From a virus: DNA of 21,588 bases. The number at the start of each line of letters is the position of its first letter. Positions within the stretch are counted from its first letter, which is position 1. A program made the translations under genes and the position numbers. The notes beneath the pieces were generated by a model. That model did not search any database. It saw only the letters and a program-made list of their open reading frames with translations, and was not told the origin of the DNA. Shown piece after piece: positions 3,032 through 21,588 of the stretch. The DNA lies in the IMG/VR virus record IMGVR_UViG_3300033545_000002, positions 64,464-86,051 of that record; one strand, 5' to 3'.

Positions 3032-3412
3032 TCAGAAGGGAAGATCCGAAATTGGTTCAGTAATATTGTCAGCGGGACCAGATGATCCGGATGAAGACTG
3101 ACGAGGTGGGGCATCTATCCCGTCGCCTATCCCGTTAACATCTCTATCTGAAATCGGCTTACCGGATCGATCCGATTTTTTGAAATTACCGATATACAAT
3201 TTTTTATCCACATCCTTCATCTCCTTGGGTGGGTTCAATTGAGCGGATGCTATGTTGCCATACTTGTCCGCTTCTGCATTTACCCAAAAATTAACAGCGG
3301 CATAGATATGGCCGTTCGTTCCTTTGGTGAAGGCCGAATGCTTTTCTCTTGCCTGATCGATAAGCAAAGTGAGATCGATGCTACCGTAATAAAGCTGATT
3401 GTCGTTGTTCAT
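3032..3412 (-). CDS. Putative single-stranded DNA-binding protein
   Basis: Beta-rich core, low-complexity G/S/P linker and acidic C-terminal DLPF tail typical of SSBs; lies in the replication module. Confidence 0.65.
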   Translation of the reverse strand: MNNDNQLYYGSIDLTLLIDQAREKHSAFTKGTNGHIYAAVNFWVNAEADKYGNIASAQLNPPKEMKDVDKKLYIGNFKKSDRSGKPISDRDVNGIGDGIDAPPRQSSSGSSGPADNITEPISDLPF

Positions 3413-7471: not shown

Positions 7472-9646
7472 TTACTTGAATAGTAATTGCTGCCTGTTTC
7501 CTTGTTCAGCAGCGCGACAATTTCTGATAGCAAGGTCGAAATAGCTTTTCTTCAATTCAAAACCAATTCCATTTCGTCCCATTTTGATAGCCTGAAATAC
7601 TTCGCTTCCAATGCCCATAAAAGGCGTCAGGATCGTATCTCCTTTGTTTGACCATAAGGTAATCGTTCGTTCGATTGTCTGTAACTGAAGCGGCGCAATA
7701 TGTTTCTCGTCGGCTTCCCCACGGCCTTCTCTCCCATTCAACGTATCGCCGTAGTCAATGTCCATCCACACAGGGGATGCGTATTGTTGCCATGTATCGA
7801 CGGATATTTCACATTTCACCGGATGTTCGTGTTCACCTGGTTTTCTGAACACCAGTAAGTAGTCTGGTATTCCGACCCGGCTCATGGCAGCATCTTTTTT
7901 AACCTGCTTATGAAGTAATCCTAATGCTTTAGTCCGCTGCATCTCCGTGACTGGATTTTTCCAAATTGTCACTCTGGAATGATAAATAAATCCAACATCT
8001 TCGAATGACTGTCGGATCATATTTGAAAAATCACGCAATCCAATATACCCTTCTTTACCTTTTTGGATGGGCAAATCCATACAATGAACAACTACATTCC
8101 GGCCGGACCACATGATCCTATGAAGTTCTTTTGCCAAAAAATTGAAAGCTATGAAAAACTCTTTGTAGTCTTTGCTATTACCCATATCTTCCAATTCGTC
8201 ACTGTAAACATATAATTCAGAAAACGGGGGAGAAAATATTGACAGACCAATGCTTTCGTCAGGAATATTTTTAATCAACTGAACACAATCGCCCAATTGT
8301 ATTTTAAAGTTATTGCCGATTTCCTCCTGAAATTGTCGTTCCATTTTTTCTTTTGATTTTAATTTTCGGTTGACGGCTTTAGTCATTTCCTCTTGCATTT
8401 GCTCGAATTGTCGCTCCTTTTCTCTCAATATCCGACCAACGTTTTGCATGGTATCGGTAGTGACTAGATAGACATTCACCTGATCTTTTTGGCCAAAGCG
8501 CCAAGATCGACGAATGGATTGGAATACTGCCTCAAATGAGAAGTCGGGGGCAGCGAATATTTGGTTATGGCAATTTTGAAAATTAAGCCCGGCTCCGGCG
8601 ATTTTGCTCTTAGTGAGTAGCACCCGTATCTTTCCAAGTGCAAAATCGGATAACTTTTCTTCCTTCCACTCTACAGTGTCACTACCACGAACCTCAACTG
8701 CATCAGGAATTAGGCGTTTCAATTCATCGCCTTCCTCATTCTGCTTTATCCAAATCAAAAAAGTTTCATCTGATCCGTTGACAATATCAGCAACTTTAGA
8801 AAGTCTTTTATCCTTAGTCCTGCGTAATTCTTGATTAAATGATGTTGCCGAAACCGCTGAATCATTGAACAACATCCCGTTATCCTTTTTGTCAGTTTCG
8901 ATTTGAAGTTCGATGAAATTTAATGGTGGCAAATCATACCCGGATTGCTCAAACCCAATGTCAGAAGGCTTTTGGAACATAATGGCCCACGTACTTACCC
9001 ATTCCCAAAACACACGATTGCTATGGCCTTTTAGCCGCCATTTATTCGTTTCGCCGCCGTCATGGACAAAATACATAGCCAGCATTTCCGAACGCGGCAT
9101 TACATCTAAAAACTCGCTGTAATTGCCAATCTCCATCGGGCTGTTCGGCGAAGGAGTGGCCGACCATACGGATTTATACGGAGTTCTTTTGAATAAGTCA
9201 ATAATTTGATTCCGATAAGCCCCTTCATGGTTTTTGAGTATGCTGCCCTCATCTAATACAATGCCAGAAAATTCAGGAATCCAATCAACGATGTTATCCA
9301 ATTGGTCATAGTTGATAATGTATATTCCCATCTTTGGCGGTCGTGTTAACTTTTCTACGGGAATATGGATGTTCTTACCTTCTGTAATTGTTTGAGAAGA
9401 AACTGCCAACGGAGCCATGATTAGGACAGGAGCATTCGTATGGTCAACAACCGCCTGTGCCCACCTTAACTGCATTCTGCTTTTCCCCGTTCCTGTCCCG
9501 CTGAACACTCCGTATTTCCCGGCAGACAAAGACTTATTAACAATAAAATTCTGGAAAGGAAACAAAAATGAACTATTGATATTGGCCTCAAACCCGCTAT
9601 GAATATGCTCTTTTCGTTTTGTTTCCAGGAACTGTTCGTAGGTCAC
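7472..9646 (-). CDS. SNF2-like SF2 helicase fused to beta-class DNA amino-methyltransferase (probably N4-cytosine)
   Basis: GTGTGKS, LDEGS, SATP, GLNFQ, QSIRRSWRFGQ; then GDCV, catalytic FSPPF preceding SAM-binding PFMGIGS and GFELK. Confidence 0.92.
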   Translation of the reverse strand: MTYEQFLETKRKEHIHSGFEANINSSFLFPFQNFIVNKSLSAGKYGVFSGTGTGKSRMQLRWAQAVVDHTNAPVLIMAPLAVSSQTITEGKNIHIPVEKLTRPPKMGIYIINYDQLDNIVDWIPEFSGIVLDEGSILKNHEGAYRNQIIDLFKRTPYKSVWSATPSPNSPMEIGNYSEFLDVMPRSEMLAMYFVHDGGETNKWRLKGHSNRVFWEWVSTWAIMFQKPSDIGFEQSGYDLPPLNFIELQIETDKKDNGMLFNDSAVSATSFNQELRRTKDKRLSKVADIVNGSDETFLIWIKQNEEGDELKRLIPDAVEVRGSDTVEWKEEKLSDFALGKIRVLLTKSKIAGAGLNFQNCHNQIFAAPDFSFEAVFQSIRRSWRFGQKDQVNVYLVTTDTMQNVGRILREKERQFEQMQEEMTKAVNRKLKSKEKMERQFQEEIGNNFKIQLGDCVQLIKNIPDESIGLSIFSPPFSELYVYSDELEDMGNSKDYKEFFIAFNFLAKELHRIMWSGRNVVVHCMDLPIQKGKEGYIGLRDFSNMIRQSFEDVGFIYHSRVTIWKNPVTEMQRTKALGLLHKQVKKDAAMSRVGIPDYLLVFRKPGEHEHPVKCEISVDTWQQYASPVWMDIDYGDTLNGREGRGEADEKHIAPLQLQTIERTITLWSNKGDTILTPFMGIGSEVFQAIKMGRNGIGFELKKSYFDLAIRNCRAAEQGNRQQLLFK

Positions 9647-10326: not shown

Positions 10327-11331
10327 CTACTCTGTTTGCGTGTGAAGTTGCATGATGAGTGTGGTAAACTTTTCACCGGGAGTTTTGACCCAGTAAAAGT
10401 TTTGTCCTTTGAAAAAATGAATGTCCTCCGCGTCGATGGCCATTAGCAATCGGTTCATGTGTTCCGCATTGTAGGTGAAAGGGGCGGACGGTGTTAGTTT
10501 TTCTATGTTTTGCTCCAAGCTAATGTCCATGTTTTTGTCGTTCATAAACATTTTGCCTTCCTGCAAAGTAACGAAGGGGATCTTGCTGGATTGGGCGCAC
10601 TCCGAATTGAATTGCTGCATGTCGCTGGCGGAAATATTAAATTCCTCTTTGTCACTTGTTATCTTCCCGTAATTGATAACGTTGATGTATTTTATCTCTT
10701 GTTTTGCAAACCCGATAACCCCATTGTCGGTGTAGAAAAACATATAATTATCGGAATATGCGTATTCTTTAATGGAAAGTTTTGAAATGACTTGTGCATG
10801 TCTGTTATCCAGTACAATCTCAAATTCTTCGTCAACCGGCTCTGAAAAAAAAATGATTCCATTCGATGCACAAATATGCCCATTACCTACCATAATGAAC
10901 GACATCCAGGAAGTGTTAGTTTCGTCAATTTTCAGTGGGAAATACTGCGCCCGATCCAACACTTTCATAAAGTTTTCAGAGATGGGGAACCGCTCACTGG
11001 TCGGTTCGGGAATCATTGGGAACCCAACCAAATCCGGTACTTGAAACGTTATGGGTATTTTCGTGTCGGTGATTGTCACTTTGTTCCCTTTTTGCGTGAT
11101 GTTTAAAAAGTCGGTAGCTTCGTTGCTTAACTTGACGCCCAACAATTTTTCATCCACCAATATCGGCTTGTCAATACCAGAGCATTCAAATTGGACGAAA
11201 GAGGTTAGGACACTTTTTGTTGCCTTCCCATTCTCCAATTTGATGTACTCTAAAATCGGTAGAATGTTGTGCCCTTTGATGTGGGACGCCATTTTTTGAA
11301 AGGCTCTAAGCCCCGTTACAGAAATATTCAT
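10327..11331 (-). CDS. DNA polymerase III beta sliding-clamp-like protein
   Basis: 334 aa; ILPILE near the N-terminus, FPxIP, ASNG, YNAEHM, C-terminal LIMQ match the DnaN pattern, but divergent. Confidence 0.7.
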   Translation of the reverse strand: MNISVTGLRAFQKMASHIKGHNILPILEYIKLENGKATKSVLTSFVQFECSGIDKPILVDEKLLGVKLSNEATDFLNITQKGNKVTITDTKIPITFQVPDLVGFPMIPEPTSERFPISENFMKVLDRAQYFPLKIDETNTSWMSFIMVGNGHICASNGIIFFSEPVDEEFEIVLDNRHAQVISKLSIKEYAYSDNYMFFYTDNGVIGFAKQEIKYINVINYGKITSDKEEFNISASDMQQFNSECAQSSKIPFVTLQEGKMFMNDKNMDISLEQNIEKLTPSAPFTYNAEHMNRLLMAIDAEDIHFFKGQNFYWVKTPGEKFTTLIMQLHTQTE

Positions 11332-18977: not shown

Positions 18978-19493
18978 ATGTCTATTTTTGGTGAGAGCAA
19001 ACAAGAAAAAGAGGAGTTTCATATCATTGACCGCCTTCTAGGGATCATTGAAAACCTCACTTTCAGAAGGGAACGGATTCGATTAATCGTTTTTTTTCAC
19101 AACAAAAATACATGTATGTCGACAGTAAATTCAGTAACATTCACAGCACTCACCCCTGATCAGGGTGTCATCGCAGTAGTAGACACGGCAAATGGTAACG
19201 CAATTCTCACCGGCACTTTGGCAAATCTTTCGGCGGTCGAAAGTGATCCCACGCAAGATACGGCCAGCATCGACAGTACGGCCCCTAACACCCTTGACGT
19301 AACACCCATCACCAACACGGGAGCCACAATGGTCACGGTTAAGGGAGACTTTACCAGCACCGGGAACGCTGGCATCACCGATGGAACGGTTTTCCCCGGC
19401 ATCACCGTTCAGGTAGCCGTCACTAACAACATTCCGACCACGCCGCCTCCGCCACCCACTCCTGTTCCGGGATTACAGGTTACCTTCCCGTAA
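18978..19493 (+). CDS. Thr/Pro-rich all-beta (Ig-like) protein; alternative start at 19116
   Basis: Alternating V/T beta strands, poly-Pro tail; own upstream promoter-like motif and downstream terminator. Confidence 0.7.
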   Translation: MSIFGESKQEKEEFHIIDRLLGIIENLTFRRERIRLIVFFHNKNTCMSTVNSVTFTALTPDQGVIAVVDTANGNAILTGTLANLSAVESDPTQDTASIDSTAPNTLDVTPITNTGATMVTVKGDFTSTGNAGITDGTVFPGITVQVAVTNNIPTTPPPPPTPVPGLQVTFP

Positions 19494-19520: not shown

Positions 19521-19547
19521 AAGAAGCCCCTTTACCGGGGCTTTCTT
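19521..19547 (+). terminator. Rho-independent terminator (possibly bidirectional)
   Basis: aagcccc-tttacc-ggggctt, A-rich before and T-rich after. Confidence 0.8.
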
Positions 19548-19768: not shown

Positions 19769-20008
19769 CTAAAGCGTCATGGTGTAATTGGTAAGCACTC
19801 CGAATGGACAATTTTGCTGACCGCAGGGCTGCCTCATTTGTCCGCTCATTAGTTCTTTCCCGCATCCTCCACAAATAGCCTCTACGGTCGGCTGGAAGTA
19901 ACGACTAAGGTCTTGTTTTGACGTCTCAGGGAAATAAGGCTTCCTTTCAACCGGCTGAACAACCGGAACGCCCAACTCTTTAGCCCTTTCTTCAATTGAT
20001 TTTTCCAT
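19769..20008 (-). CDS. Hypothetical protein with zinc ribbon
   Basis: CGGCG...CGQQNCP; directly downstream of recA. Confidence 0.7.
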   Translation of the reverse strand: MEKSIEERAKELGVPVVQPVERKPYFPETSKQDLSRYFQPTVEAICGGCGKELMSGQMRQPCGQQNCPFGVLTNYTMTL

Positions 20009-20049: not shown

Positions 20050-21303
20050 TTAAGCGGGTTGTTTTTGTTTCATTTTTCCGCGGATTTCAGCCTCAACGTC
20101 ACTAGCAAATTCAACGTTATTTTTAAGAAGGTCTTTGACGCTTTCCCGGCCTTGCCCCAATTTATCATCGCCACGGCTATACCAACTTCCTGCCTTTTTG
20201 ATAATGCCAAGATCAACCGCCGTATCGACAAGTTCGCCTGATTTTGAAATTCCTTCGCCATACATAATATCAAATTCGGCTTTTTTGTACGGCGGCGCTA
20301 CCTTGTTTTTGATAACTTTTACGGTTGTTCTGTTCCCCATAATTTCGTCGCCGTCTTTAATCTGTGCATTCCGACGAACGTCAAGCCGGATAGACGAATA
20401 GAATTGAAGAGCTAGGCCACCCGGGGTTGTTTCCGGCGATCCGTAAACGATACCTATTTTATTCCGCAATTGGTTGATGAAGATACAAAGCGTGTTGGTT
20501 TTTTTAATAATCCCCGCCAATTTTCGGCAAGCCTGTGACATTAAACGGGCGTGTGCCCCCATTTTTGAATCCCCCATTTCTCCCTCCAATTCGGCTTTCG
20601 GAACAAGAGCGGCCACGCTATCAATTACTACCACGCCATATTCACCACTTGAAATATGCCGATCTGCAATTTCTAAAGCTTGCTCCCCGTAATCCGGCTG
20701 CGAAACGGTCAATTCTTCTATTTTAACCCCCAAATTGCGGGCGTATTCCTGATCGAAAGCGTGTTCTGCGTCGATCATCAGGCACTTTAGACCCATTTTT
20801 TGAGCTTCGGCAATCGTATGGATAGCGATAGTTGTCTTACCAGAGCTTTCTGGGCCGTAAATTTCGACCATTCGGCCGCGCGGCAACCCACCAACTCCCA
20901 ACGCAATATCCAGCCCAAAAGACCCCGTAGAAATCGCCTCAATGCCGTGCATAGGGCCATCCCCCAAAAACATTACCGATCCTTCGCCGAAATCTGCATT
21001 ACACTTCGAAATGACTTCCCGAATCCGCTTCATACTTTCGTTGGACGGTTTTTCTTTTAACCCTTTTTCATCCACAACCAACTCTGTTTTTGGAGCAGGA
21101 GGGGGTAATGGTTCGGCAATCGGAGCGTCAAGAGTGGCTAAAAATGTCTCAATCTTTGGAATCCAACTTTCCGGCATGGATTTTCCGCCGCCGAGGACTG
21201 CACTAAGGGAATTTTTTGGCAAACCAATTGATTCTTCGAGTGTTGTCTTCTTTTCTCCGGCTTCGACTAACTGGTTTAGTCTTAAAATTAGTTCTTGCAT
21301 CAA
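20050..21303 (-). CDS. recA: RecA recombinase with N-terminal XRE-like HTH extension
   Basis: [74 protein letters not shown]; about 85 extra N-terminal residues. Confidence 0.96.
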
Positions 21304-21494
21304 AAAGGTTATTTATTGGGTGAAAAAAGTTAGTGCAACTAACTAAAACTAATCGTCGCACTAAGGACAAAACTAACTGTTTGGATGAACAAAATTAGGA
21401 ATAAAAAACTAAATAAACTAATAAATGTATGAAATAATTAAACTATTTATCTTGTGGGTCCCCCCCCTCTCTCTAATTAAATAAAACCAAAGCC
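21304..21494. promoter_or_regulatory. Divergent control region with palindromic operator and AACTAA repeats
   Basis: agttagt-gca-actaact (21328-21344); minus-strand TAGTTTTG (21368-21375) and TAATTTTG (21390-21397) match the TAnnTTTG -7 box. Confidence 0.7.
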
Positions 21495-21588
21495 ATGAAC
21501 AACGAAATAAAGCGGATTGATATAAAGCAGGCTATAGATAATGAGATCCATCGCGGCGGACTGCCCCCTAAGATGCCGAAACATTTCG
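21495..21588 (+). CDS. Partial CDS, unknown function
   Basis: ATG after A-rich leader; open to the window end (MNNEIKRIDIKQ...). Confidence 0.55.
   Translation, partial: MNNEIKRIDIKQAIDNEIHRGGLPPKMPKHF

Follow-up and report, generated by a model that had tools for sequence, protein, structure and literature searches.

The phage genome analysed here encodes a RecA recombinase that carries a helix-turn-helix (HTH) domain, hereafter the head, at its N-terminus. This head-RecA protein probably represses its own promoter and would thus be a phage recombinase with a sequence-specific DNA-binding head. Computed directly were the HTH fold, the intact RecA catalytic set, a conserved array of short boxes confined to the promoter, the overlap of these boxes with the predicted -33 and -7 promoter elements, and the loss of the array upon replacement of the head. 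RecA is normally only the sensor of the SOS circuit, in which a separate, cleavable repressor is needed. The analysed stretch of DNA (the window, 21,588 nucleotides) is part of an 86-kb phage contig (G000), which is 72% complete.

The HTH head and the RecA body

The fusion gene and its parts are located in the window as follows:
20050-21300, minus strand: head-RecA fusion gene, 416 aa, ATG at 21300
21127-21300, minus strand: XRE/lambda-repressor-like four-helix HTH head, residues 1-58
21046-21126, minus strand: proline-rich linker (residues 59-71, variable, low pLDDT) and beta-hairpin (residues 72-85)
20053-21045, minus strand: RecA body, residues 86-416

The minus-strand frame 20050-21303 runs without interruption through 417 codons counted from a TTG, and the ATG at 21300, one codon further in, gives the 416-aa protein. 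The first-pass annotation had read an intact RecA core, an N-terminal stretch and a proline-rich linker in this one frame, and the profile searches agree: the protein scores 496.7 bits against TIGR02012 (equivalog cut-off 325.3), which assigns it to bacterial RecA, with Pfam RecA covering residues 92-352 (E 8e-123) and RecA_C residues 355-411. The alignment to E. coli RecA is gapless, and Walker A and B, the catalytic Glu, the Gln and Arg before the L2 loop and the KxK motif are all present. None of these key residues (Walker A K155, catalytic E179, Walker B D227, Q277, R279, K331 and K333) varies in 89 aligned relatives. The whole body, the N-terminal helix, the Walker motifs, the catalytic Glu, the KNK motif and the C-domain are thus shared with bacterial RecA (TIGR02012), whereas the phage protein adds the head, the linker and the beta-hairpin, and its L2 loop is variable where that of the host is nearly fixed. 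The nearest host RecA sequences belong to Chitinophagaceae (66-68% identity).

The L2 loop is identical in 63 of 77 host RecAs, whereas the 115 phage proteins compared have about 50 variants of it, 65 of these proteins having a loop shortened by one residue. Within the phage RecA clade, the hypervariable segment corresponds to residues 278-295 of P0001 and their counterparts in its relatives, a segment that is almost invariant in host RecA. In E. coli RecA, F203 in this loop keys LexA cleavage (bioRxiv 2023.10.30.564768). The protein in the window has a full-length, near-canonical loop with Y286 and one Thr-to-Pro change, and the loop is remodelled in most relatives. This drift hints that much of the phage family may have been freed from acting as host co-protease.

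Of 89 aligned full-length relatives, 87 retain Met1 and just 33 the internal Met90, which speaks against an internal start. The extension is therefore most likely translated from upstream, as annotated, with the ATG at 21300 rather than the TTG at 21303 as the probable start codon. A read-through artefact or a wrong start was rejected in view of the head in 96 clusters, the conserved Met1 and the variable linker length. The 16 head positions that are invariant across 75 sequences, the variable linker and the conservation of Met1 together indicate that the extension is a selected, coding part of the protein.

As anticipated in the first-pass annotation, residues 1-60 are predicted to fold as an HTH: AlphaFold2 placed four helices at residues 2-13, 18-25, 32-36 and 46-58 (mean pLDDT 90.4). 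The recognition helix is presumably at about residues 28-37, a predicted position that we assumed from the 434 repressor. Foldseek returned 434 CI, SinR and C.AhdI as top matches (prob 0.96-0.97, E 0.14-0.3), and VIA-align ranked the MuB NTD first (Z 8.4, rmsd 1.8, 59 aligned), followed by the AcrIIA15 NTD (Z 7.3, rmsd 2.0, 57 aligned) and other HTH domains. The head superposes on the helical bundles of CI, Cro and SinR with their HTH (TM by query 0.65-0.73); the E-values are weak, as expected at 60 aa. Pfam HTH_3 is weakly matched (E<=1) by 25 of 75 family members, with a best E of 0.0014, while the query alone has no Pfam match there, and a PDB sequence search with the head profile gave no match at E<=10. 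A homodimer prediction for the head scored 0.00 and was not counted as evidence. In the full-length model, a disordered linker (60-65) is followed by the hairpin (72-85) and then by the first helix of RecA. The proline-rich linker is present as described earlier; the conserved beta-hairpin behind it had gone unmentioned, and it is retained in the zinc-finger versions considered below, too.

A search with residues 1-75 alone found the head on RecA-sized proteins in 96 clusters (at 90% identity), all annotated as RecA and mostly 400-415 aa long; the same two-domain architecture is thus carried by relatives, as had been expected. Three outcomes had been named beforehand as speaking against the fusion, namely residues 1-60 not folding as an HTH, an internal start and relatives without the extension; all three were examined and none was observed. 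Longer-than-usual head-bearing RecAs are P0050 (687 aa), which carries PF14890, presumably an intein splicing domain, and L026:346 onward.

In a profile search of 1.84 billion proteins, the head had 245 relatives. Among the best 150 of these, most are proteins of 100-260 aa with an unrelated tail and no RecA, some of the tails being GIY-YIG-like. The head thus behaves as a mobile module, one that RecA has joined. P0106-P0245 represent a big phage family with the same HTH and unrelated, often low-complexity tails, which in P0128 and P0143 appear to run into a GIY-YIG-like domain (by eye). The nearest chromosomal matches of the head are HigA-like and CI-like HTHs (E about 1e-4).

The box array, the promoter and the exchange of heads

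Directly upstream of the gene, where candidate operators had been proposed, a putative operator array of TTAGT boxes overlaps a predicted promoter:
21304-21421, minus strand: polar box array, with TTAGT boxes (5 bp) on the minus strand followed by reversed boxes near the ATG; TTAGT boxes start (plus-strand numbering) at 21417, 21408, 21372, 21360, 21348, 21342 and 21338, reversed ACTAA at 21330 and AATAAC at 21308
21328-21344, no strand assigned: 7-3-7 palindrome at the meeting point of both box orientations, 27 bp before the ATG
21390-21421, minus strand: predicted Bacteroidota promoter TTAG-N20-TAATTTTG, with one box as the -33 element and another in the spacer
21266-21292, minus strand: in-gene boxes within the first 12 codons, with an exact CTAA-N5-TTAG at 21267-21279

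TTAGT/ACTAA boxes number 11 in the 200 bp that reach from the upstream region into the first codons, and at most three in any other such stretch of the 86-kb G000. The array occurs once in this genome, at the fusion's own promoter; with this single array in the assembled genome, control would most likely extend to recA and the gene next to it. A divergent ORF begins at 21495, across the array from recA. All 24 fusion loci carry 4-13 TTAGT or GTTATT boxes per 160 bp. The TTAGT count exceeds Markov simulations in 21 of the 24 loci (p<0.03), and GTTATT does so in two all-GTTATT loci (p<0.001); the loci are kin, and their box counts are not independent. The layout across the 24 loci is polar: the forward boxes are the distal ones, 40-140 bp from the ATG, the reversed ones occupy the last 40 bp or so, and the direct spacings peak at 9-12 bp. 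Loci with Thr at head residue 20 have more GTTATT boxes (mean 3.8 vs 0.6 across 24 loci, uncorrected for kinship). At two loci (L014:940-1170 and L015:420-649), nearly all upstream boxes have changed together from TTAGT to GTTATT with the recognition helix unchanged.

The Bacteroidota promoter consensus at -33/-7 is TTTG/TAnnTTTG (PMC6847099). A second TAnnTTTG lies at 21368-21375, and in most fusion loci, boxes lie within or over a promoter-like TTWG-N19/21-TAnnTTTG. A sigma70 promoter scan gave chance-level results, its model being ill-suited to Bacteroidota. As far as can be judged from the sequence, an array on and between the -33 and -7 elements has the geometry of a repressor site. Within the first 15 codons, CTA makes up 44 of 82 Leu codons, compared with 16 of 84 at other gene starts of the genome (the loci are related and the p-value is overstated), and this bias preserves boxes inside the reading frame. 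The leader is predicted to form a hairpin (z -2.4); the simplest account is that the converging boxes give rise to it, although it may also provide RNA-level control.

The boxes could also be read by a non-canonical LexA of the host or by another factor, with the head as a passenger or as a protein-contact module like the MuB NTD. Chitinophagaceae LexA binds CTAA-N5-TTAG (PMC8565304), the half-site of the boxes is the same tetramer, 12 of 24 fusion loci have an exact CTAA-N5-TTAG at codons 8-12, and the nearest host RecAs are from this very family. However, no exact box occurs in the upstream 200 bp of 29 loci, where the boxes are repeated directly or face the other way round, and LexA binding is lost when the spacer is altered (PMC8565304). 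Moreover, a host factor leaves the head-linked change of the array, described below, unexplained, and we consider this explanation highly improbable. The in-gene CTAA-N5-TTAG may be a real SOS input atop self-repression, or it may simply arise where phage boxes fall in Leu-x-x-Leu-Val codons. The exact motif at 21267-21279 has one other exact copy in G000, at position 3163. For the comparison of heads, a search for CTAA-group LexA proteins returned none.

That the head itself reads the boxes is suggested chiefly by the array changing along with the head, as seen in two zinc-finger lineages. A search with the RecA body identified close relatives with other heads, namely diverged HTHs and a C4 zinc finger (C-x2-C...C-x3-C; weak treble-clef matches). 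The zinc finger is unrelated to the HTH head, and heads A3 and A4 are unrelated; P0246 has a body 85% identical to that of the query, yet a different HTH. In a tree with midpoint root and 42 rows of our choice, host RecA is separated from all head-bearing phage RecA cores, which share a single branch (99/96). On this branch, zinc-finger versions turn up in several places as sisters to HTH versions, and the AU test rejects a monophyletic zinc-finger group (p-AU 9e-49, for a group named after seeing the FastTree result). By these placements, a C4 zinc finger has repeatedly taken the place of the HTH head inside a single phage RecA clade.

The zinc-finger loci contain 0-1 TTAGT, and the array is gone in both lineages checked. 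In its place, L131/L132 have 3-6 TAGCGTA-type boxes over the promoter in the same polar layout, and L128/L129 have a weaker TGTWR pattern, the L128 motif being short and defined after the fact. The zinc-finger genomes G003 and G004 are without the HTH. RecA-free genes with the same HTH and a similar recognition helix keep the array (10 boxes at L028, five at L030), and a diverged head-only gene (L029) has one box. In the loci compared, box and head travel together, with RecA attached or not. Viral scans for divergent-HTH versions gave no loci. Both the exchangeability of the head and the existence of the same HTH without RecA had been overlooked in the first-pass annotation.

The phage genome and its inverted repeat

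Phages with head-RecA form a large family of uncultured Bacteroidota phages, and their host is probably a member of the Chitinophagaceae. The G000 terminase is closest to those of Cellulophaga phi38:1/Calle and Flavobacterium elemo phages (26-28% identity), and the capsid candidate has no match among GenBank phages. The head had no match in 50,697 GenBank phages, where the best RecA matches begin at residue 71 at least and leave the head unmatched, so that no cultured member was found. Genes in the window include a primase-helicase, a helicase-methylase, a thymidylate synthase and NinG, and RusA and phrog_5715 exonucleases lie upstream of recA in relatives. In L135:534-2361, L031 and L033:1192-2073, one or two phrog_5715 exonucleases, RusA and RHH regulators are located upstream and point away from recA, a segment that is missing in G000. 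Within the window, a 724-aa gene (7472-9646) combines a helicase-like N-part and a DNA methyltransferase-like C-part in one frame, a 334-aa ORF (10327-11331) without Pfam or PHROG match has a start that looks sliding-clamp-like by eye, and a 171-aa ORF (18978-19493) with a Thr-rich body, a Pro-rich end and no Pfam match is convergent on the recA transcript. The fusion gene is flanked by the following features:
19769-20008, minus strand: Cys-rich ORF, 79 aa, downstream of recA, adjacency not conserved in relatives
19524-19543, minus strand: terminator-like hairpin that would end the recA transcript; a pattern match, with 3 found vs 3.6 expected in shuffles
21462-21588, no strand assigned: inner end of the repeat, with an inverted copy at the contig start (G000:1-127) and a G8 run at the border (21460-21467)

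The 79-aa Cys-rich ORF is probably co-transcribed with recA. In the one RNA run considered, the fusion gene had no coverage, and small-share runs offered no evidence of habitat. The two ends of G000 are mutually inverted over 127 bp, the assembly word length, and the k141 assembly (L007) goes 14 bases further; likewise, inverted contig ends are present in G002 (G002:1-80) and G004 (G004:76276-76331). By our reading of the contig table, the source run contains a 7,402-bp unbranched contig that extends past the border at 21462. By these contigs, the inverted repeat exceeds 127 bp and the recA fusion is the first gene on its inner side. The genomes of the family break at the inverted repeat, which is often bordered on its inside by a G run some 160 bp upstream of recA.

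This position could mean that the head tethers or nucleates RecA at the inner repeat border, for repeat recombination, genome isomerisation or end replication, with repression as a side effect. The array lies within 160 bp of the border in G000, with like geometry in G002 and G004, many contigs stop 170-330 bp upstream of the fusion gene, the 7.4-kb contig goes on past the border, and in G004 one box is inside the repeat. In G000, however, the boxes are outside the repeat and none occurs at the other end; their layout tracks the promoter, and RecA-free head proteins have the same array. Furthermore, the depth of the repeat contig is 23.9 and not double that of the flanks (16.9 and 21.5), leaving two full copies unsupported, and the long-read contig in which a second copy was sought did not show one. 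Taken together, tethering seems unlikely.

The first-pass annotation had proposed a one-component DNA-damage switch; in the version considered here, it would control a lysogenic or plasmid-prophage state in place of a CI repressor cleaved via RecA*. Sensor and head do form one chain, the divergent ORF starts across the array, relatives have small HTH/RHH regulators upstream, and no S24 peptidase was found in the head-RecA protein or in G000, G001 and G002, so that no classical switch would be in competition. Nevertheless, a temperate lifestyle found no support: a search for tyrosine integrases (PF00589) detected none in the same three genomes (G000 being incomplete), and the head family was absent from 400 Bacteroidota genomes, barring one 4-kb phage-like contig. 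In addition, the array is unique to the recA promoter, and its boxes cluster toward recA and end about 70 bp before the start of the divergent gene. A damage switch is quite improbable on this evidence. The 4-kb contig (L027 / G005:C16) is part of a Flavobacteriales MAG and matches the phage locus L020; it is probably misbinned and hence no evidence of a host.

Probable self-repression and comparison with known systems

Self-repression of the recombinase is favoured by an array that is confined to the promoter, conserved, polar, placed over the promoter elements and accompanied by CTA-biased codons, and also by the head-only genes that retain the array and the natural head swaps that change it. 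The recombination partners in the family (NinG, RusA and the phrog_5715 exonucleases) were likewise counted in its favour. Other findings count against it. The boxes of L014/L015 switched to GTTATT with an unchanged helix, implying either a loose reading of TTA[G/T]T by the head or a contribution from another factor. The MuB NTD, to which the head is closest in fold, is an HTH that reportedly does not itself bind DNA (PMC11292022), and just two independent zinc-finger lineages were checkable.

We propose that host RNA polymerase transcribes the recA fusion early, and that the heads would then bind the TTAG/T boxes, whose direct spacing of 9-12 bp could allow cooperative reading by the heads that a RecA oligomer displays. 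The promoter would shut and the RecA level would be capped, so that host RecA filaments are not poisoned and SOS is not over-fired. Single-stranded DNA from phage replication or exonuclease resection would pull the protein into filaments, the free pool would fall and the promoter would reopen. Such a supply that follows demand via ssDNA filaments, without proteolysis, is plausible, and we put it forward tentatively; the titration idea of the first-pass annotation has a precedent in P1 ParA (PMC9178275). Promoter and head would represent one exchangeable cassette before a fixed hairpin-RecA body. More doubtful is a protease-free, one-protein ssDNA sensor, in which the filament strips the head off its operators, the uncleavable head, by virtue of the half-site it has in common with host LexA, may occupy host SOS boxes and cassette swaps retune the circuit.

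No RecA with a sequence-specific head was described in the literature searched (most subscription journals being outside the search), the PDB or the GenBank phages. The parts and the logic of a self-repressing fusion are already known; what appears to be new is their combination on RecA, along with the cassette swapping. With an operator-reading domain built into RecA, one can test whether filament formation is by itself able to regulate transcription. From the repeated head-and-operator swaps between HTH variants and a zinc finger come natural pairs of matching specificity, together with predicted binding sites for two DNA-binding families not described so far, and the variants produced by L2 drift could be used to separate recombination from LexA co-protease activity. 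Even if the head merely caps expression, this would be a new case of the self-repressing fusion design.

Among known systems, type Ia ParA (P1 ParA, F SopA) is the best functional model: a P-loop ATPase with an HTH at its N-terminus acts as repressor of its own promoter. In type Ia ParA the HTH represses the operon, and in P1 ParA non-specific DNA binding competes with operator binding (PMC9178275). However, ATPase family and HTH class differ, ParA acts as a dimer on the nucleoid whereas the phage RecA would act as a filament on ssDNA, and the head is exchangeable in the phage RecA family. Since the ATPase is a RecA and not a deviant Walker A ParA, the likeness is one of analogy only. AcrIIA15 (PMC10901769; PDB 8JFR) likewise joins a phage effector to a similarly folded, self-repressing HTH, but its cargo is a Cas9 inhibitor and its NTD dimer binds a palindrome, whereas the phage RecA boxes are mostly direct repeats. 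The best fold match, the MuB NTD (PDB 2MQK; PMC11292022), is also a four-helix HTH on a filament-forming phage ATPase; MuB differs in being an AAA+ protein with non-specific DNA binding, in which the NTD is reported to take no direct part (PMC11292022). Finally, the head has a lambda-repressor-like HTH in common with lambda/434 CI, and its boxes share the CTAA/TTAG half-site with one group of non-canonical Bacteroidota LexA (PMC8565304). In contrast to both, the phage protein is without S24 peptidase or cleavage, carries RecA in cis and has no CTAA-N5-TTAG geometry upstream.
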